The notes beneath the pieces are model-generated. The model did no database searches, was not told the DNA's origin, and was given only the letters and a program-made list of their open reading frames with translations. Shown in pieces: positions 517-10,451 of a stretch of DNA of 10,501 nt (position 1 is its first letter; every line of letters begins with the position of its first letter). The stretch lies in UHGV virus genome UHGV-0105382; one strand, 5' to 3'. The DNA comes from a virus. Position numbers and translations under genes: made by a program.

Positions 517-653
517 CCATTAATCACCAGATGCTTCGTGCTGCACAAAACAAAGCAGTAATAGCCCGATTTATTGGTGATTCAAAAATGTGGCTTGAAG
601 CAAATAAAGCGATGAAATCAGCTATCAACCTTCCATGGTATCGCAGGAAATGA
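501..653 (+). CDS. kil: Kil-like small protein (putative host cell-division inhibitor), 50 aa
   Basis: ORF not in the supplied track (under 60 aa). GGAGG at 492-496, ATG at 501, 16-nt overlap with the cIII-like 3' end as in lambda. The motif AAQNKAVIARFIGDSKMWLEANKAMK resembles what I recall of lambda Kil (AIQTKFTIATFIGDEKMFREAVDAYK). Assignment rests on memory and synteny. Confidence 0.45.
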   Translation: MRNEIAINHQMLRAAQNKAVIARFIGDSKMWLEANKAMKSAINLPWYRRK

Positions 654-808
654 GTTTTACAGATAACTGGTCAGACGAAGAATTCATTCGTCAGATGAAA
701 GAATTAATCGGTAACGAAGGAGATATTCATGTCACTTGCAACCACAGTGAAGGAGAGCAAGTTACAGAGACGCATGTACACGCAGAAAGCTCTCTGGTAT
801 CGCCATAA
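650..808 (+). CDS. Hypothetical small protein (52 aa)
   Basis: ATG overlaps the Kil-like stop (ATGA), suggesting translational coupling. No independent RBS and no recognisable family. Confidence 0.3.
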   Translation: MSFTDNWSDEEFIRQMKELIGNEGDIHVTCNHSEGEQVTETHVHAESSLVSP

Positions 809-907
809 TGGCGACCGCGAAGGAATGCGGGTATGCCTTAATTTGTCCAGAGTCGAAGTATTAAACCAGCGTTATTTCCTTGGGCCATGTCCATTCTGAG
901 GTGAATT

Positions 908-1615
908 ATGGATTTGAATAAATTCGATGAGCCATTCAGCCCTGAAGATATCGAATGGCGAATACAGCAAAGCGGTAAAACACGCGATGGCAAAGTGTGG
1001 GCTATGGTGCTGGCTTATGTCACGAACCGGGCAATCATGAAACGCCTGGACGATGTTTGCGGCAAAGCAGGATGGCGCAATGAATACCGCGATATTCCCA
1101 ACAACGGCGGCGTTGAATGCGGCATATCAATCAGGATTGATTCCGAATGGGTAACCAAATGGGATGCTGCTGAAAACACGCAGGTAGAAGCCGTCAAAGG
1201 TGGTCGTTCCGGTGCAATGAAGCGCGCTGCCGTTCAGTGGGGAATCGGTCGGTATCTGTATAACCTTGAGGAAGGTTTCGCACAAACATCTCTCGATAAA
1301 AAGCAGGGGTGGCACAGGGCAAAACTGAAGGATGGAACAGGATTTTACTGGCTCCCTCCATCGCTGCCGGGCTGGGCAATGCCAGTATCAGATAACAAAC
1401 CATCACCAGAAAATACCAACCAGAAATCTCCATCGGTTGACTGCGAGCAAATCCTGAAAGACTTCAGCGATTATGCGTCAACAGAAACTGACAAGAAAAA
1501 ACTCATCGAGCGTTATCAGCGTGACTGGCAATTAATGGCTGGCAATGAGGATGCGCAGGCTAAATGCGTTCAGGTAATGAACATCAGAGTTAACGAGCTA
1601 AAACAGGCGGCATAA
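908..1615 (+). CDS. Rad52-like single-strand annealing protein (phage recombinase, Sak/Rad52 type)
   Basis: TGAGGTG RBS at 897-903. Translation carries a Rad52-type core (GWRNEY...GGVECGISIRIDSEW...KRAAVQWGIGRYLYN), comparable to the Rad52 KRSLRGFGNALGNCLY region. Stop is directly followed by the SSB start (TAAATG). Confidence 0.75.
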   Translation: MDLNKFDEPFSPEDIEWRIQQSGKTRDGKVWAMVLAYVTNRAIMKRLDDVCGKAGWRNEYRDIPNNGGVECGISIRIDSEWVTKWDAAENTQVEAVKGGRSGAMKRAAVQWGIGRYLYNLEEGFAQTSLDKKQGWHRAKLKDGTGFYWLPPSLPGWAMPVSDNKPSPENTNQKSPSVDCEQILKDFSDYASTETDKKKLIERYQRDWQLMAGNEDAQAKCVQVMNIRVNELKQAA

Positions 1616-2119
1616 ATGGCAAGCAGAGGCGTAAATAAGGTGATCATTATTGGTCGCCTTGGGCATGATCCAGAAATCAGATATTCACCATCAGGAACGG
1701 CATTTGCAAACCTTACAGTTGCTACGTCAGAACAGTGGCGTGATAAGCAAACTGGAGAGAAAAAGGAGCAGACGGAGTGGCACCGTGTGGTAATGAGCGG
1801 GAAACTGGCAGAAATTGCCAGCGAATATCTGCGAAAAGGCTCTGAGGTTTATCTTGAAGGCAAATTGCGGACAAGAAAATGGCAGGATCAAAGCGGACAG
1901 GATCGGTTCACTACCGAAATCATCGTGGGCGTTGGTGGAACTATGCAAATGATTGGTGGCAAGCAAGGAGGCAATGAACAGTCTTCACCTCAGCGAAATA
2001 ACGGTCAGCAACCTCAGCAGCAAGGGAATCACAGCGAACCACCTATGGATTTTGACGACGATATCCCCTTTGCACCAGTAACTCTCCCCTTCCCTCGTCA
2101 CGCTATTCACGCAATTTAA
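1616..2119 (+). CDS. ssb: Single-stranded DNA-binding protein (phage SSB) with a C-terminal extension past the DDDIPF tip
   Basis: N-terminal OB fold nearly as in E. coli SSB ([16 protein letters not shown]...TEWHRVV...), Gly/Gln-rich linker, conserved MDFDDDIPF motif, then 15 more residues ([15 protein letters not shown]) before the stop. Confidence 0.9.
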
Positions 2120-2127
2120 GGACTTAC

Positions 2128-2676
2128 ATGAATCACTTGATGGTTGACCTTGAAACAATGGGCAACGGGCCATACGCGCCAGTTATTTCTATTGGGGCGG
2201 TATTCTTTGACCCGAATACCGGAGAAACAGGAGAAGAGTTCTCGGTAAATATCTCGCTTGAGTCATCAATGCGATATCGGGCGCGTCCTGACGCTTCAAC
2301 GATTTTATGGTGGATGGAACAGAGTGAAGAAGCCAGAAAATCGCTAACCAGCAACACTCAGGAGCTTTCAACGGCTCTTTCATGGTTATCTGAATTCATC
2401 ATAAAGAACGCTAACCACAAATTCGTTCAGGTTTGGGGGAATGGAGCATCATTTGACTGCGTTATTCTCCGAAACAGTTATTCGCTGACAGGGCAGCCAG
2501 TTCCGTGGCAGTGGTGGAATGACCGCGACGTAAGAACAATCGTCGAGCTTGGAAAGGTAATAGGATTCGACCCTAAGCGAGATATGCCATTCAAAGGAAC
2601 TCGCCACAACGCGCTTGATGATGCCATCCACCAAGCCAAATACGTTTCAGCAATCTGGAAAAAATTAGCTCAATAA
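2128..2676 (+). CDS. DEDDh-family (DnaQ-like) 3'-5' exonuclease
   Basis: All three exonuclease motifs are visible: Exo I (MVDLETMG), Exo II (WGNGASFDCVIL) and Exo III (HNALDDAIHQ). AAGGA RBS sits just upstream of the ATG. Confidence 0.8.
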   Translation: MNHLMVDLETMGNGPYAPVISIGAVFFDPNTGETGEEFSVNISLESSMRYRARPDASTILWWMEQSEEARKSLTSNTQELSTALSWLSEFIIKNANHKFVQVWGNGASFDCVILRNSYSLTGQPVPWQWWNDRDVRTIVELGKVIGFDPKRDMPFKGTRHNALDDAIHQAKYVSAIWKKLAQ

Positions 2677-2692: not shown

Positions 2693-2986
2693 ATGCCAGC
2701 GCCTCTGTATGGTGCGGATGACCCGCGCCGCTGTTCCGGCAAATCCGTATCGGAGGTGCTGGATAAATTCAGAAAAAACTACGACCTGATAATATCGCTA
2801 CCGAAGGAAACGAAAGAGGAAAAGGAATTTCGCCATTGTATATGGCTTGCAGAGAAAGAAGAACGCGAGCGAATTTACCAGACATCAATCCGACCATTCC
2901 GCAAAGCCGCATATACCCACTTCCCTGAAATTGACCCGCGTCTGCGTAATTACCGCTCACGCTATGGCGCTATCAGTAATGACTGA
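2693..2986 (+). CDS. Hypothetical protein (97 aa)
   Basis: AGGAG at 2683-2687, ATG at 2693. No recognisable motif. Basic and Glu-rich. Confidence 0.6.
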   Translation: MPAPLYGADDPRRCSGKSVSEVLDKFRKNYDLIISLPKETKEEKEFRHCIWLAEKEERERIYQTSIRPFRKAAYTHFPEIDPRLRNYRSRYGAISND

Positions 2987-3287: not shown

Positions 3288-3451
3288 GAGGACTTGCATA
3301 CAATCCCGGCATTCTTCCGGCAGAAATGATTATTCGCCAACGCGTAAAGCCAATGCCATCGAGAGAGGAATTGCTTAAGAGAAAGAGTTTCGGTTCTGTT
3401 AATGACAACAAATATCTGAATGCGATGTTGCGCAAAGGAGGCAACCAATGA
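3284..3451 (+). CDS. Hypothetical small basic protein (55 aa)
   Basis: Not in the supplied track (under 60 aa). ATGA overlaps at both ends (3284-3287 and 3448-3451) and it exactly fills the gap between neighbours. Translation [55 protein letters not shown]. Confidence 0.4.
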
Positions 3452-3801
3452 GCAAGATTGACTATCAGGCACTGCGTGAAAAGGCAGAGAAAGCAACGTG
3501 TGGTGTGTGGTCGCTCGAATATGGAGAGAGCCGATTTGATTGTGATGATGCGCTAATTCATCGTGACGTTGTTGGATATCTTCCCATTTGCAGAATTGAA
3601 GGAGCGCATCCTGAAAGCGGTTTCGATGAAGATTTCCAAATGGAACAGCAGGCCAATGCTGAATTCATCGCCGCAGCCAATCCGGCTACTGTGCTGGCAC
3701 TACTGGATGAAAACGAAAGACTGTGTCGCGAGCTGATAGCTCGTAATGGTGAGATTGAAGGGCTTCGGAAGTGGGCAGAAGAACGGGAGATGCAACCATG
3801 A
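3448..3801 (+). CDS. Ead/Ea22-like protein (117 aa)
   Basis: AGGAGG at 3436-3441. N-terminal module ([18 protein letters not shown] ... [24 protein letters not shown]) recurs in the next gene and matches my recollection of the Ead/Ea22-like family of lambdoid early-left regions. Confidence 0.65.
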
Positions 3802-4727
3802 TGACTTTTACCAGCGAACAATTAGCTACCTTACGTAAGATAGCGCAACAGGCAACACAGGGCGAATGGCGTGCATTCATCTCGCCGGACACTGGTACAT
3901 ATGCGGTGCATACGCCGGGGGATGAACGTTGCGGAGACATTATCAAATGGCCTGGCTTTGACGACCAGAAAAATGCAGAGAACAACGCAGAATTTATCGC
4001 AGCTTTCAACCCTAAATTAGTGCAGACACTGCTGGATGAACGGGAAAGAAACCAGCAATACATCAAATCACGCGACCAGGAGAACGAGGATATTGCGCTA
4101 ACGGTAGGGAAGCTGCGCGTTGAGCTTGAGGAGGTGAGAGCAAAACTCAATGAACAACGCGAGTATTACGAGGGAGTAATCGCGGATGGAAGGAAGCACA
4201 TAGCAGAACTGGAAAAACAATGCGCCGAATGGGAGCGAAAAGCATTAAGCAACTTTGAAGAGTGTGCTGCGATGGCTGAACGTATCGAAGAGATGCAGAC
4301 AAAATCTGCACCAGATTCGTTTGGCATCATCGGTGAAAATATTCGAACACAGGATAATCGAATAACGTCAGATCCTATGTTTTGTGTGTATCAAAAGCGC
4401 GAAATCGTTGTTGATGCTGATTATGACTATGACCGGATTGTCTGGGTTGATGAAGATGGCAATGAAGCCAATAAACTCCAAAGTCGTCGTCTCGAACTAC
4501 TTCATGAAAACTTTCGGGAGCCACCAGAAAAATGGCGGCGCGTTGCTGTGAAAGATATTGATGAATTCGTTACCTGCTGTTTCACCGAACAGGGTTGTAA
4601 AGACTACCTGGCAGCCAATGGTCACAATCTTCGCTTGCCATTTATATATGTAAAAAGCGGTTTCAGGAACGCTGAATATATCGGCATAAGAAACTGGCTT
4701 GCTGGTATTCGCATCAAAGGAGACTGA
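3798..4727 (+). CDS. Ead/Ea22-like protein, long form (309 aa) with coiled-coil middle and distinct Cys-containing C-terminal domain
   Basis: GGGAGA at 3785-3790, ATG at 3798 overlapping the previous stop (ATGATGA). N-terminal module (EQLATLRKIAQQATQGEW ... NNAEFIAAFNPKLVQTLLDERER) is paralogous to the preceding gene. The track's GTG start at 3771 is less likely. Confidence 0.7.
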   Translation: MMTFTSEQLATLRKIAQQATQGEWRAFISPDTGTYAVHTPGDERCGDIIKWPGFDDQKNAENNAEFIAAFNPKLVQTLLDERERNQQYIKSRDQENEDIALTVGKLRVELEEVRAKLNEQREYYEGVIADGRKHIAELEKQCAEWERKALSNFEECAAMAERIEEMQTKSAPDSFGIIGENIRTQDNRITSDPMFCVYQKREIVVDADYDYDRIVWVDEDGNEANKLQSRRLELLHENFREPPEKWRRVAVKDIDEFVTCCFTEQGCKDYLAANGHNLRLPFIYVKSGFRNAEYIGIRNWLAGIRIKGD

Positions 4728-6316: not shown

Positions 6317-6352
6317 TTGCGTGTAATTGCGGAGACTTTGCGATGTACTTAA
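6317..6352 (+). promoter_or_regulatory. pI-like cII-dependent promoter (TTGC-N6-TTGC box overlapping the xis start)
   Basis: TTGC at 6317-6320 and 6327-6330 with a 6-nt spacer, the direct-repeat architecture of lambda cII sites. The surrounding sequence (TTGCGTGTAATTGCGGAGACTTTGCGATGTAC) matches what I recall of the lambda pI/xis region. Confidence 0.5.
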
Positions 6353-6561
6353 CACTTCAGGAGTGGAACGCACGCCAGCGGCGCCCAAGAAGCCTTGAAA
6401 CAGTTCGTCGATGGGTACGCGAGTGCAGGATATTCCCTCCTCCGGTTAAGGATGGAAGAGAGTATCTGTTCCACGAATCAGCGGTAAAGGTTGACTTAAA
6501 TCGACCAGTAACAGGTAGCCTTTTGAAGAGGATCAGAAATGGGAAGAAGGCGAAGTCATGA
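6343..6561 (+). CDS. xis: Excisionase Xis (lambda-type, 72 aa)
   Basis: Translation MYLTLQEWNARQRRPRSLETVRRWVRECRIFPPPVKDGREYLFHESAVKVDLNRPVTG... is essentially the lambda Xis sequence as I recall it. GGAG at 6331-6334. 3' end overlaps the int start as in lambda. Confidence 0.95.
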   Translation: MYLTLQEWNARQRRPRSLETVRRWVRECRIFPPPVKDGREYLFHESAVKVDLNRPVTGSLLKRIRNGKKAKS

Positions 6562-7612
6562 GCGCCGGGATTTACCTCCTAACCTTTATATAAGAAACAA
6601 TGGATATTACTGCTACAGGGACCCAAGGACGGGTAAAGAGTTTGGATTAGGCCGAGACAGGAGGATAGCAATCACTGAAGCTATACAGGCCAACATTGAG
6701 TTACTCTCAGACAGCGGACGCAAATCACTGATAGACAGAATTAAAGGCGGTGACGCAATCACTCTTCATGTGTGGCTTGACCGATATGAAAGAATCCTCA
6801 CCGAAAGGGGGATCAGGCCGAAAACTCTACTCGACTACGCCAGCAAAATCAGGGCAATCCGAAGAAAATTGCCGGACAAACCGCTCACTGACATATCAAC
6901 GAAAGAAGTGGCAGCAATGCTAAACACCTACGTAGCAGAAGGTAAAGCAGCTTCCGCAAAATTAATCAGGTCAACCCTTGTTGACGTTTTTCGTGAAGCA
7001 ATAGCCGAGGGGCATGTGGCAACGAATCCGGTAACAGCAACCCGTACAGCAAAGTCAGAAGTAAGGCGCTCAAGGCTGACAGCTAATGAGTATGTCGAGA
7101 TTTACCATGCAGCCGAACCTCTCCCTATCTGGCTAAGGCTGGCGATGGATTTGGCCGTCGTTACAGGGCAGAGAGTCGGCGATTTGTGCAGAATGAAATG
7201 GTCAGACATAAACGACAACCATCTTCACATTGAACAGAGTAAAACAGGGGCTAAACTCGCCATTCCGCTAATGCTAACGATTGACGCGCTCAATATCTCA
7301 TTGGCTGATACACTACAGAAATGCAGGGATGCCAGCAGCAGTGAAACTATAATCGCATCAAAGCATCACGATCCGCTTTCCCCGAAAACAGTATCAAAGT
7401 ATTTTACAAAGGCGAGAAATGCATCTGGACTCTCATTTGATGGAAACCCGCCAACATTCCATGAACTGCGTAGCCTGTCAGCGAGGCTATACCGGAACCA
7501 GATTGGCGATAAGTTTGCTCAACGTCTTCTCGGGCATAAATCAGATTCAATGGCGGCGCGGTATAGGGACAGCCGTGGACGGGAATGGGACAAAATTGAA
7601 ATCGACAAATGA
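6539..7612 (+). CDS. int: Tyrosine integrase, lambda Int family (357 aa)
   Basis: N-terminal arm-binding domain matches lambda Int (MGRRRSHERRDLPPNLYIRNNGYYCYRDPRTGKEFGLGRDRRIAITEAIQANIEL). Catalytic residues are placed as in lambda (VVTGQRVGDL, HELRSLSARLY, LLGHKSDSMAARYRD, C-terminus REWDKIEIDK). The central core-binding region differs from lambda. Confidence 0.95.
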   Translation: MGRRRSHERRDLPPNLYIRNNGYYCYRDPRTGKEFGLGRDRRIAITEAIQANIELLSDSGRKSLIDRIKGGDAITLHVWLDRYERILTERGIRPKTLLDYASKIRAIRRKLPDKPLTDISTKEVAAMLNTYVAEGKAASAKLIRSTLVDVFREAIAEGHVATNPVTATRTAKSEVRRSRLTANEYVEIYHAAEPLPIWLRLAMDLAVVTGQRVGDLCRMKWSDINDNHLHIEQSKTGAKLAIPLMLTIDALNISLADTLQKCRDASSSETIIASKHHDPLSPKTVSKYFTKARNASGLSFDGNPPTFHELRSLSARLYRNQIGDKFAQRLLGHKSDSMAARYRDSRGREWDKIEIDK

Positions 7613-7706: not shown

Positions 7707-10451
7707 GTGAATTTAACCCTGACCCGAAGACTCTGGATGGGCTTTGCCCTGATGGCGCTGTTAACCCTGACCAGTACCCTGGTGGGATGGTACAACCTGC
7801 GCTTTATCAGCCAGGTGGAAAAAGACAACACTCAGGCATTGATTCCTACCATGAATATGGCGCGCCAGTTGAGCGAAGCCAGCGCCTGGGAACTTTTCGC
7901 CGCGCAGAACCTGACCAGTGCCGATAACGAAAAGATGTGGCAGGCGCAGGGGCGAATGCTCACCGCACAAAGCCTGAAGATTAATGCGTTGCTGCAAGCA
8001 TTACGGGAACAAGGTTTTGATACCACCGCTATTGAACATCAGGAGCAGGAGATCTCCCGTTCGTTACGTCAGCAAGGGGAACTGGTGGGACAGCGTTTGC
8101 AACTGCGCCAGCAACAACAGCGACTCAGTCAGCAGATAGTCGCCGCCGCCGATGAAATCGCACGCCTGGCGCAAGGTCAGGCGAATAATGCGGCAACTTC
8201 CGCCGGAGCGACCCAGGCCGGGATTTACGATTTGATCGAACAACATCAGCGTCAGGCCGCAGAAAGTGCACTCGATCGGCTGATTGATATCGATCTTGAG
8301 TATGTTAACCAGATGAATGAACTGCGCCTTAGCGCCCTGCGGGTGCAGCAAATGGTGATGAATCTGGGGTTGGAACAGATCCAGAAAAATGCGCCAACGC
8401 TGGAAAAGCAGCTCAATAATGCGGTGAAAATTCTGCAACGTCGGCAAATACGCATTGAAGATCCGGGAGTTCGTGCTCAGGTCGCAACAACGTTAACTTC
8501 CGTTAGCCAATATAGCGATTTGCTGGCGCTGTATCAGCAGGACAGTGAAATCAGCAATCGCCTGCAAACTCTCGCCCAAAATAACATCGCCCAGTTCGCG
8601 CAGTTTAGTAGCGAAGTCAGTCAGTTGGTCGACACCATTGAGCTGCGTAATCAGCACGGACTGGCGCATCTGGAAAAAGCCAGTGCACGCGGGCAATACA
8701 GCCTGTTATTGCTGGGGATGGTTTCACTTTGCGCACTGATTCTGATCCTCTGGCGCGTGGTTTATCGCTCAGTCACGCGTCCACTTGCCGAACAAACGCA
8801 GGCGCTGCAACGGCTGCTGGACGGTGATATCGACTCCCCTTTTCCGGAAACCGCTGGCGTGCGGGAGCTGGATACCATCGGGCGGCTGATGGATGCGTTT
8901 CGCAGCAGTGTTCATGCACTGAATCGCCACCGCGAACAGCTGGCGGCGCAGGTCAAAGCGCGTACAGCTGAATTGCAGGAGCTGGTGATAGAACACCGAC
9001 AGGCACGGGCGGAAGCAGAAAAAGCCAGCCAGGCAAAATCGGCGTTTCTGGCGGCGATGAGCCATGAGATCCGCACACCGCTGTACGGTATTCTTGGCAC
9101 CGCGCAACTGCTGGCAGATAACCCCGCACTTAATGCCCAGCGTGATGATTTGCGGGCAATTACCGACTCTGGTGAATCGTTGCTGACCATCCTCAACGAT
9201 ATTCTCGATTATTCGGCTATCGAAGCAGGCGGCAAGAATGTTTCGGTCAGCGATGAACCCTTTGAACCGCGCCCGCTGCTGGAAAGTACCCTGCAATTAA
9301 TGAGCGGAAGGGTGAAAGGTCGCCCGATTCGCCTGGCAACAGAAATTGCCGACGATGTACCGACTGCGTTAATGGGCGATCCGCGGCGTATTCGTCAGGT
9401 CATTACCAACCTGTTGAGCAACGCCCTGCGTTTTACTGACGAAGGACAGATCGTTTTACGTAGCCGCACTGATGGCGAGCAATGGCTGGTCGAAGTGGAA
9501 GACAGCGGCTGCGGTATTGATCCCGCGAAACTGGCTGAAATCTTCCAGCCATTTGTTCAGGTTAGCGGCAAACGCGGCGGCACCGGGCTGGGGCTGACCA
9601 TCAGTAGCCGTCTGGCCCAGGCGATGGGCGGCGAACTGAGCGCCACCAGCACGCCGGAAGTTGGAAGCTGTTTTTGTTTACGCTTGCCGTTACGTGTTGC
9701 CACTGCACCCGTGCCAAAAACAGTCAATCAGGCGGTGCATCTGGACGGTTTACGTTTGCTGTTAATTGAAGATAACCCGCTAACCCAGCGAATTACCGTT
9801 GAGATGCTGAACAACAGTGGGGCGCAGGTCGTTGCGGTAGGAAATGCCGCGCACGCAATAGAGACGTTGCAAAATAGCGAACCGTTTGCTGCCGCACTGG
9901 TGGATTTTGATCTGCCCGATATCGACGGCATTACGCTTGCCCGGCAACTGGCACAGCAATATCCGTCGCTGGTTTTGATTGGCTTTAGCGCTCATGTCAT
10001 CGACGAAACGTTGCGCCAGCGTACCAGTTCATTATTTCGCGGGATTATCCCTAAACCGGTGCCGCGTGAAGTGCTCGGTCAGTTACTGGCGCACTATCTC
10101 CAACTGCAAGTCAATAACGATCAACCGCTGGATGTATCGCAACTCAATGAAGATGCTCAGTTGATGGGGACGGAGAAGATCCACGAATGGCTGGCATTAT
10201 TTAAACAACATGCCCTGCCGCTTCTCGATGACATCGGCATCGCCCGCTCCAGCCAGAACAGCGAAAAAATAAAGCGTGCCGCACATCAGCTAAAAAGCAG
10301 TTGCTCGAGTCTGGGAATGCGTAGCGCCAGCCAGCTATGCGCACAACTGGAGCAGCAGCCATTATCTGCCCCCCTTCCACACGAAGAAATTACACGCAGT
10401 GTTGCCGCTCTGGAAGCATGGTTGAATAAGAAAGACCTGAACGCGATTTGA
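7707..10451 (+). CDS. torS: TMAO-responsive hybrid sensor histidine kinase TorS (914 aa from the GTG at 7707; 904 aa if started at the ATG at 7737)
   Basis: Translation matches E. coli TorS as I recall it ([22 protein letters not shown]...). Two transmembrane segments flank a periplasmic domain, followed by an H-box ([11 protein letters not shown], His codon 9063-9065), G-boxes (DSGCGI, GGTGLGL), a receiver domain (LLIEDNP; Asp codon 9903-9905 in [10 protein letters not shown]) and a C-terminal HPt (AAHQLKSS, His codon 10284-10286). Counting from the internal ATG these residues are His443, Asp723 and His850, the phosphorelay positions as I recall them for TorS. Confidence 0.95.

Follow-up and report, generated by a model that had tools for sequence, protein, structure and literature searches.

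Four genes on the forward strand of the 10,501-nucleotide window (the whole stretch of DNA that was analysed, from virus genome UHGV-0105382) follow each other at positions 908–2986, with intergenic gaps of 0, 8, and 16 nt: they encode a single-strand annealing protein (908..1615), a single-stranded DNA-binding protein (SSB; 1616..2119), a 3'-5' exonuclease (2128..2676), and the anti-RecBCD protein Abc2 (2693..2986). The first three open reading frames, 908–1615, 1616–2119, and 2128–2676, lie where an earlier reading of this DNA, made from its letters and without database searches (the sequence-only reading), had placed them. Within 908–2986, no promoter-like or terminator-like site is found, and this includes a search for an internal promoter of the exonuclease gene. 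The set is preceded by ral-like, cIII, and kil genes and followed by ea genes, xis, int, and torS; the gene order of the window matches the c3-kil-arf-erf-abc1-abc2 order of phage P22. With a probability of roughly three in four, 908–2986 is thus a Rec module of the P22/epsilon34 type, composed of annealing protein, SSB, DexA-like DEDDh 3'-5' exonuclease, and Abc2, and with the same probability it forms one transcription unit, in the early-left (PL) operon of a lambdoid prophage at torS. The type of module is already known, being annotated in phages and published (Villafane 2008; Genome Res 2025).

The annealing protein (908..1615, + strand; 235 residues) is chimeric. Its N-terminal part, residues ~4–136, is a predicted annealing domain of the Rad52/Rad22 type (the phage Sak group), as the sequence-only reading had proposed: in a profile search, residues 4–136 align with positions 7–153 of the 153 positions of Rad52_Rad22 (PF04098; E 7.1e-26, 91.4 bits against a cutoff of 20.3). 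The C-terminal domain (residues 157–235, nt 1376–1615) has its homolog in the corresponding domain of P22 Erf; these last 79 residues are 63% identical to the Erf C-terminus and are the sole part of the protein that BLASTP aligns to it. The ERF profile (PF04404) has no match in the protein, the Erf-type N-terminal annealing domain being absent, and by this domain composition the name of the PHROG family to which the protein belongs (PHROG 1097, 'Erf-like ssDNA annealing protein'; E 2e-129) fits the C-terminal domain only. The same swap between Rad52 and Erf domains has been reported in epsilon34 (PMC2629481). At the level of sequence, the annealing protein has no relative in the PDB.

The start codon of the SSB gene (1616..2119, + strand) touches the stop codon of the annealing gene (TAAATG). 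The product is a bacterial-type SSB of 167 residues with an OB-fold ssDNA-binding domain (PF00436, E 1.4e-38; TIGR00621, 179.8 bits against a cutoff of 53.95), in agreement with the family given to it earlier. All SSB profiles stop at residue 152, the last residue of an acidic DDDIPF motif (residues 147–152), which is followed by an extension of 15 residues (nt 2072–2116); the protein does not carry, at its extreme C-terminus, the acidic tip with the free carboxylate of a terminal Phe. The same tail is kept in mEpX2, epsilon34, ECP1, and HK75. An origin of the extension as part of a cassette with the exonuclease was considered and rejected, as ECP1 and HK75 have the tail and no nuclease, and as the SSB that precedes the exonuclease in Pectobacterium lacks the tail. 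In HK620, the cognate phage SSB stimulates the annealing protein via the SSB C-terminal tail, as found by experiment (PMC5928155).

The third gene (2128..2676, + strand) encodes a DEDDh (DnaQ-like) exonuclease of 182 residues, similar to T4 DexA and to Rv2179c. It matches the Rv2179c-like profile, which also matches DexA, over its full length (PF16473, positions 1–177 of 177; E 2.8e-73, 245.8 bits against a cutoff of 27); the earlier assignment to the DEDDh 3'-5' exonucleases therefore stands, and the protein is not of a 5'-3' family. The DEDDh residues are D7, E9, D110, H160, and D165, invariant across 40 homologs; D7, D110, H160, and D165 align with D7, D119, H186, and D191 of DexA, which is also what phmmer finds in the PDB (8KEL/8KEN, E 7e-14). 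The AlphaFold model (pLDDT 91.9, pTM 0.88) predicts an RNase H-like DEDD fold, for which the best Foldseek match is again T4 DexA (8KEN; E 2.4e-12, TM 0.79), ahead of other 3'-5' DEDDh enzymes; a Cas2-DnaQ domain, RNase T, REXO2, Orn, and Cap18 are the further top matches. The polarity of the enzyme, 3'-5', is that expected from its family. DnaQ-like 3'-5' nucleases have been counted among the members of Rec modules, with epsilon34 as the example (PMC12315714). Among the PADLOC defence models, only a weak, generic DEDDh match to the exonuclease is obtained (E 2e-4), and none to the other proteins of the module.

The sequence-only reading had found neither a Gam-like nor an Abc-like gene, and half of this holds: profile searches give no match to Gam in any open reading frame of the window, nor to a 5'-3' exonuclease of the lambda Exo, RecE, or YqaJ type. 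Abc2, however, is present at 2693..2986 (+ strand; 97 residues), starting 17 bases past the end of the interval given in that reading; it is a clear homolog of the Gam/Abc kind, the very finding that had been named beforehand as refuting. Its gene begins 16 nt past the exonuclease stop, with a strong ribosome-binding site (AGGAG), and its product matches the Anti-RecBCD_p2 profile from end to end (PF11043, positions 1–97 of 97; E 4.5e-62, 206.7 bits against a cutoff of 25), as well as PHROG 656 ('abc2 anti-RecBCD', E 5.3e-53). RefSeq entries for genomes that share 99.9% identity with the window label this gene 'phage anti-RecBCD protein'; NCBIfam holds no model for Abc2, nor for the annealing protein or the exonuclease. 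The protein is identical to P22 Abc2 in 88 of 97 positions (91%) and, on the strength of this identity, would bind RecC and abolish the response of RecBCD to Chi. It also retains Pro68 (in the context SIRPFRK), the residue of P22 Abc2 that engages the host protein PpiB (PMC9836394). Once Abc2 is counted, the module, which had been called non-canonical, is the known P22/epsilon34-type one.

Between kil and the annealing gene lie two overlapping small open reading frames, the first of which had been put forward as a possible carrier of RecBCD protection. This acidic frame (650..808, + strand), located right after kil and partly in the position of P22 arf, belongs to PHROG 2123 (E 9e-42); it has no Pfam match and no Gam- or Abc-like signal in either Pfam or PHROG. 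As a gene it is itself doubtful: across 33 alleles, the ratio of synonymous to non-synonymous substitutions in its frame is 7:13 outside the overlap and 0:27 inside, which gives no sign of coding constraint in the overlap. The second frame (729..899, + strand) encodes 56 residues of basic character directly 5' of the annealing gene, belongs to PHROG 1723 (E 9.4e-36), and is the equivalent of Sf6 gp29 and HK97 gp42; substitutions in its frame lean towards synonymous ones (123:33 outside the overlap, 17:15 inside), and it is the better supported of the two. Neither frame is a convincing match to P22 Arf: 650–808 has only an N-terminal 'SDEEFI' in common with it (pairwise E 0.014), and 729–899 shows no similarity.

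Annotated copies of the four-gene module exist in mEpX2, mEp235, epsilon34, and g341c, and at least 80% of it is found in 140 of 5,426 complete E. coli genomes. In IMG/VR, all 80 loci whose exonuclease shares at least 89% identity with that of the window have abc2 at +565 nt, and 73 of them have the full set of annealing protein, SSB, exonuclease, and Abc2; these loci are near-identical, and their conserved order thus reflects shared ancestry and is not independent evidence. The slot between ssb and abc2 is variable. It is empty in ECP1, where abc2 directly follows ssb, and apparently also in HK75, as judged only from the features under the HK75 match; it holds an HNH gene in Sf6 (ssb-HNH-abc2), and in about 13 IMG/VR loci both genes (ssb-HNH-exonuclease-abc2). 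By these gene orders, the exonuclease is an optional and dispensable accessory cassette of the slot. Members of its clade lie directly 3' of an SSB gene behind three unrelated types of annealing protein: the Rad52 type in E. coli and Pectobacterium, a true Erf in Klebsiella, and the RecA-fold Sak4, with an HK620-type SSB, in Providencia. Homologs of about 60% identity also occur in prophages without nearby Rec genes, where their neighbours are DndB-like, DUF551, or DUF2303 genes and xis-int; the enzyme thus has no need of a phage annealing protein or SSB. In phage Tritos, the exonuclease domain forms the C-terminus of a protein of 823 residues, with no annealing protein or SSB gene nearby, and in RcPacific it is found beside a DNA polymerase.

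In modules of the P22 type, resection is thought to come from Abc2-modified RecBCD (PMC9836394, PMC5928155), Abc2 turning RecBCD into a 5'-3' exonuclease (PMC5928155). Given the homology with P22 and HK620, the most likely source of 5'-3' resection here, too, is the RecBCD of the host, as reprogrammed by Abc2. After induction or infection, Abc2 would bind the RecC subunit of host RecBCD, which would then act as a Chi-blind, constitutive helicase with nuclease activity on the 5' strand; the 3' single-stranded tails would thus be made by the host enzyme and not by a phage Exo. The phage SSB would coat these tails and help to load the annealing protein, which would pair complementary strands in the circularisation of the genome, the restart of replication, and exchange between phages or between phage and prophage. 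Resection by reprogrammed RecBCD would make a phage 5'-3' exonuclease unnecessary, so that in the presence of Abc2 the lack of one is expected and is no anomaly. The sequence-only reading was right in that a 3'-5' enzyme cannot be a resection partner as lambda Exo and RecE are; the exonuclease of the module does not have this role.

What the exonuclease does instead is the puzzle of these modules: they borrow RecBCD for resection, yet sometimes carry a 3'-5' exonuclease, an activity usually opposed to recombination, since 3'-5' ssDNA exonucleases destroy 3' tails and are thus for the most part anti-recombinogenic (PMC12315714). Our best guess, a tentative one that we hold at somewhat under even odds, is that it processes the 3' ends of SSB-bound ssDNA; it would trim away 3' flaps that lack homology, or 3' tails left unannealed, such that annealed intermediates could be ligated or extended. 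A broader form of this proposal, speculative and rather unlikely as a whole, is that the DexA-like enzyme is an SSB-coupled 3'-end processor within a recurrent architecture of annealing protein, SSB, and 3'-5' exonuclease, assembled independently around Rad52-, Erf-, and RecA-fold (Sak4) proteins and working together with Abc2-reprogrammed RecBCD; the capped SSB tail (DDDIPF and the 15 residues that follow) might then be a private partner interface, insulated from the host SSB interactome. If this were true, a normally anti-recombinogenic 3'-5' nuclease would promote recombination by single-strand annealing in phages.

Unlikely, though worth weighing, is an independent accessory role, in which the exonuclease, as a DexA-like nuclease, would attack the modified (5hmC-type) DNA of superinfecting T-even phages in the manner of the 'HREX' defence, or would more generally serve competitor exclusion or nucleotide scavenging. 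EcD (HAK9828821.1), a short E. coli homolog of DexA, is inactive on unmodified dsDNA, cuts T4 DNA, and, when plasmid-borne, protects against T4 (PMC12153337); this 'HREX' activity, and the place of T4 DexA as the closest solved structure, speak for such a role, as does the retention of a tryptophan, W130, in alignment with DexA W152; an aspartate, D148, lies one position off DexA D169, the residue that serves in DexA, with W152, in the recognition of 5hmC. The homologs of about 60% identity in prophages without Rec genes, next to DndB-like genes, point the same way. However, the exonuclease gene lacks its own promoter, and the PL operon to which it belongs is repressed, so that its expression in the lysogen is not expected. 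Its recurrence right after SSB genes, with annealing proteins of three unrelated types in front of them, also argues against an independent role. EcD, moreover, is a different and more distant protein, starting with MIDTET according to the primers, and no protein with this start is among the 120 closest clusters of the window exonuclease (at least 57% identity). A 17-mer scan of genome contigs for EcD gave 99 matches in unrelated taxa, with about 70 estimated by chance from the size of the collection.

Action on RNA, in the manner of the 3' exoribonuclease Rv2179c (on RNA 3' ends, on R-loop or primer RNA, or in transcript turnover), is highly unlikely. It would agree with the naming of the Pfam family for an exoribonuclease, with the RefSeq and PHROG-derived annotations of the protein as '3'-5' exoribonuclease', and with the structural neighbours that follow DexA, namely RNase T, Orn, and REXO2; against it stand T4 DexA, the characterised protein to which the enzyme is closest in sequence as well as in fold and which is a DNA exonuclease (PMC12153337), and a genomic context of DNA-transaction genes. 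The view from which the analysis started, of a non-canonical module without a RecBCD inhibitor, in which the 3'-5' exonuclease takes the place that lambda Exo has as partner, and protection from RecBCD either does not exist, is encoded at another site, or is provided by 650–808, had its three family assignments right, as well as the lack of Gam, lambda Exo, and RecE homologs in the window, but is scarcely credible given a full-length Abc2 gene just 3' of the exonuclease, a 650–808 frame with neither a Gam/Abc-like match nor coding constraint in its overlap with 729–899, and a module type already published and annotated.

With Abc2 recognised, the apparent anomaly is gone, and the locus is a Rec module of a common, annotated, and published lambdoid type. 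An answer on the exonuclease could refine models of single-strand annealing in phages, and could provide recombineering with an accessory factor to use or to avoid.

Among the closest known systems is the Salmonella phage epsilon34, whose genes 33–36 (Abc2, nuclease, SSB, Erf-like protein) correspond to the four genes of the window in identity, order, and tight packing, as is also the case in the E. coli phages mEpX2 and mEp235 and in the Salmonella phage g341c. At the DNA level, the module of the window is 86.6% identical to that of epsilon34 and 92% to that of mEpX2; the exonuclease of the window is 87–98% identical to those of this group at the protein level, and both share the tail of the SSB and the chimeric make-up of the annealing protein. 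The differences from the epsilon34/mEpX2 group are allelic only, apart from another integrase and attachment site: the prophage of the window is located at torS, whereas mEpX2 has an SfX-type integrase and a thrW-like site. In the Shigella phage Sf6 (genes 25–28), the annealing protein, the SSB core, and Abc2 are nearly identical to those of the window, with 96.7% DNA identity over the shared parts; the slot, however, holds an HNH endonuclease in place of the DEDDh exonuclease, and the SSB ends in DSDIPF, with a tail of 14 residues fused to the HNH frame. For the exonuclease itself, the likeness to T4 DexA extends to the Pfam family, the fold, and the DEDDh catalytic residues; identity, however, is only ~25–31%, and the window protein is 45 residues shorter, lacking the extra loops of DexA as well as the tetramer contacts S87/D90 (the D90 region is deleted or replaced, by S81-T82-A83). 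DexA, moreover, belongs to a lytic phage that degrades host DNA, whereas the enzyme of the window is prophage-borne.

The arf-erf-abc1-abc2 module of P22 occupies the same operon position, after c3 and kil, and is presumed to share the reliance on Abc2-modified RecBCD (PMC9836394), Abc2 being 91% identical. Its annealing domain, however, is of the Erf type, whereas that of the window is of the Rad52/Sak type; abc1, judging from gene order and family assignments, is absent from the window, with ssb and the DEDDh exonuclease in its place, and there is no clear homolog of Arf. HK620 (hkaM-sak4-ssb-abc2) likewise has Abc2 alongside an annealing protein and its cognate SSB, and lacks a 5'-3' exonuclease; in contrast to the window, its annealing protein has a RecA fold, its SSB is non-homologous, and it has no exonuclease, although in a Providencia relative of its module the SSB gene is followed by the same DEDDh exonuclease. 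Lambda Red (exo-bet-gam) and RecET of Rac resemble the module of the window in that they, too, lie in the PL operon and serve recombination by means of an annealing protein. However, lambda encodes its own 5'-3' exonuclease, of the PD-(D/E)XK type, and with Gam an inhibitor that blocks RecBCD completely; the module of the window has neither and, by analogy with P22, would instead keep RecBCD in a modified form through Abc2.

The sequence-only reading had described the recombination module as non-canonical, without a RecBCD inhibitor; the three genes that it saw are there, but the absence of an inhibitor is refuted, since a full-length Abc2 (97 aa, 2693-2986, + strand) is encoded directly downstream of the exonuclease. 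The abc2 gene starts 16 nt past the exonuclease stop behind a strong AGGAG ribosome-binding site, and its product matches Pfam Anti-RecBCD_p2 over its full length (residues 1-97 of 97, E 4.5e-62) and PHROG 656, 'abc2 anti-RecBCD' (E 5.3e-53). It is identical to P22 Abc2 in 88 of 97 residues (91%), Pro68 included, and is named 'phage anti-RecBCD protein' by RefSeq in E. coli genomes sharing 99.9% identity with the window over 908-2986; it is the clear Gam or Abc homolog whose presence nearby that reading had itself named as evidence against it. In the accepted model for this family, Abc2 binds RecC and suppresses the response to Chi, leaving RecBCD as a helicase whose cutting of the 5' strand is up-regulated; the 3' tails are made by host RecBCD, and the phage annealing protein is loaded onto them. 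Hutinet et al. interpreted HK620 by the same Abc2/RecBCD model, and the cognate phage SSB of HK620 stimulates its annealing protein via the SSB C-terminal tail (PMC5928155). Given 91% identity to the P22 protein, the Abc2 of the window would bind RecC and reprogram RecBCD in the same way; resection by the modified RecBCD would then explain why there is no 5'-3' exonuclease gene, and the supposed anomaly disappears.

The module type is in fact already known and widely annotated. The four-gene arrangement is annotated in mEpX2 and mEp235 (92% DNA identity) and in epsilon34 and g341c (86.6%), and at least 80% of 908-2986 is present in 140 of 5,426 complete E. coli genomes. Among 80 IMG/VR loci with an exonuclease at least 89% identical, all have abc2 at +565 nt and 73 have the complete set of annealing protein, SSB, exonuclease and Abc2, the remainder being mostly truncated contigs. 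A 2025 survey covering 325 lambdoid phages counts DnaQ-like 3'-5' nucleases among the four nuclease types of Rec modules, citing epsilon34 for them, and remarks that, curiously, such enzymes usually inhibit homologous recombination (PMC12315714).

The gene families assigned from sequence stand: the annealing protein (235 aa, 908-1615, +) matches Rad52_Rad22 (PF04098, E 7.1e-26), the SSB (167 aa, 1616-2119, +) PF00436 (E 1.4e-38), and the exonuclease (182 aa, 2128-2676, +) the Rv2179c-like family PF16473 (E 2.8e-73), with no match of the latter to any 5'-3' exonuclease family. The only solved relative by sequence is T4 DexA (8KEL/8KEN, E 7e-14), which is also the best structural match (E 2.4e-12, TM 0.79) of a confident AlphaFold model built with 40 homologs (pLDDT 91.9, pTM 0.88); the next matches, the Cas2-DnaQ domain, RNase T, REXO2, Orn and Cap18, are all DEDDh 3'-5' enzymes. 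The catalytic residues D7, E9, D110, H160 and D165 are invariant across the 40 aligned homologs, and D7, D110, H160 and D165 align with D7, D119, H186 and D191 of DexA (PMC12153337). With these matches and the catalytic residues kept, the predicted 3'-5' polarity appears sound, and the earlier inference that the exonuclease is not the resection partner was right. In phage Tritos (L006, 1584-4055), the C-terminal part of an 823-aa protein annotated 'exonuclease VIII, ds DNA exonuclease' is a DEDDh 3'-5' domain that shares 57.8% identity with the exonuclease of the window (PHROG 2082 match at 641-816 of 823); judged by this domain alone, the protein seems to be mislabelled as RecE/ExoVIII (5'-3').

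The exonuclease is an optional cassette, as the slot between ssb and abc2 occurs in four states: empty in ECP1 and, as far as the features under its match go, in HK75; with an HNH endonuclease in Sf6; with the exonuclease in the window, epsilon34 and mEpX2; and with both in about 13 IMG/VR loci. More distant members of its clade directly follow SSB genes behind three unrelated annealing proteins, a Rad52-type protein without Abc2 in Pectobacterium (74% identity), a true Erf with a diverged Abc2 in Klebsiella (81%) and the RecA-fold Sak4, with an HK620-type SSB, in Providencia (67%), which speaks for a role linked to recombination. Our best guess, at a probability of roughly 35-40%, is that the enzyme trims flaps or tails at the 3' ends of SSB-coated ssDNA. 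The chief alternative is a role independent of recombination, one version being an anti-T4 'HREX' activity like that reported for the short E. coli DexA homolog EcD (PMC12153337); EcD, however, is a different and more distant protein, and the exonuclease gene lies without a promoter of its own inside a repressed operon. An obligatory role in recombination is itself disfavored by the place of the domain at the C-terminus of the Tritos protein, by RcPacific, where the exonuclease domain adjoins a DNA polymerase, and by a sister clade (~60% identical) in Salmonella, E. coli, Citrobacter and Klebsiella prophages, which has no Rec genes nearby and is flanked by DndB-like, DUF551 or DUF2303 genes and xis-int. 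In the Salmonella/Klebsiella loci L190-L193 and L207-L209, its members (186-190 aa) repeatedly lie beside a DndB-like gene near xis/int, with no annealing protein, SSB or Abc2 nearby; the Salmonella member P0063 has entries in 497 blocks of the collection. As DndB-like proteins are associated with DNA-modification systems, this pairing might indicate a role unrelated to recombination. RNA is a further possible substrate.

The annealing protein is a chimera of a Rad52-type body and 79 C-terminal residues (nt 1376-1615) that share 63% identity with the C-terminal domain of P22 Erf, a swap already noted in epsilon34 gene 36 (PMC2629481). ECP1 has the same body with the same tail, and a true Erf body in Klebsiella bears a related one, which suggests that this domain is an exchangeable partner-interaction module. 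The SSB runs 15 residues (nt 2072-2116) past the canonical DDDIPF tip, all SSB profiles ending at residue 152; this tail recurs in mEpX2, epsilon34, ECP1, HK75 and a Klebsiella prophage, and a Vibrio phage SSB has a related one (APVGLQYGRNLLHVI). As SSB partner proteins make a key contact with the free carboxylate of the terminal Phe, the capped tip, of which a literature search found no mention, could change the partner set. In Sf6 (L005, 2618-3580) and about 13 IMG/VR loci (e.g. L010, L013, L023, L026), the HNH ORF starts right after an SSB ending in DIPF, and its own C-terminal end consists of 14 SSB-tail residues. A homing-type HNH gene seems to have landed precisely at the junction of the DIPF codon and the tail, which would give the SSB a canonical tip again and leave the tail attached to the HNH protein.

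The window covers a lambdoid prophage's left arm, and all genes described here are on the + strand. Downstream of abc2 (2986) follow a DUF5405 and a DUF2737 gene, two Ead/Ea22 genes, a dATP/dGTP pyrophosphohydrolase-DUF551 fusion, a DUF4222 gene, xis (6343-6561), int (6539-7612) and the host gene torS (7707-10451), which begins 94 nt past the integrase gene. The Ead/Ea22 ORFs (3448-3801 and 3771-4727, the latter with a GTG start) are consecutive, share 31 nt and are each matched by PF13935; a duplication or the splitting of one gene could explain the pair. Related prophages occupy the torS-adjacent site in many E. coli genomes with varying mixes of early-left genes, and complete genomes cover at most 76% of the window, so that none of them holds this particular mosaic in full.

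Upstream of the module lie a ral-like anti-restriction gene (50-298), cIII (331-516), kil (501-653) and two overlapping small ORFs (650-808 and 729-899). The former ORF, once proposed as an unrecognised RecBCD inhibitor, has no Gam- or Abc-like signal and is the weaker gene call of the pair, as over 33 alleles, whose substitution counts are not independent events, only 729-899 is biased toward synonymous changes. Read in different frames, both fall in PHROG families labelled 'recombinase', a label without visible basis, as neither is a convincing homolog of P22 Arf. With gaps of 0, 8 and 16 nt and no promoter- or terminator-like site within 908-2986, the four genes appear to form one unit inside the PL operon. 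The gene order parallels c3-kil-arf-erf-abc1-abc2 of P22, with the position of abc1 taken in the window by ssb and the exonuclease gene.
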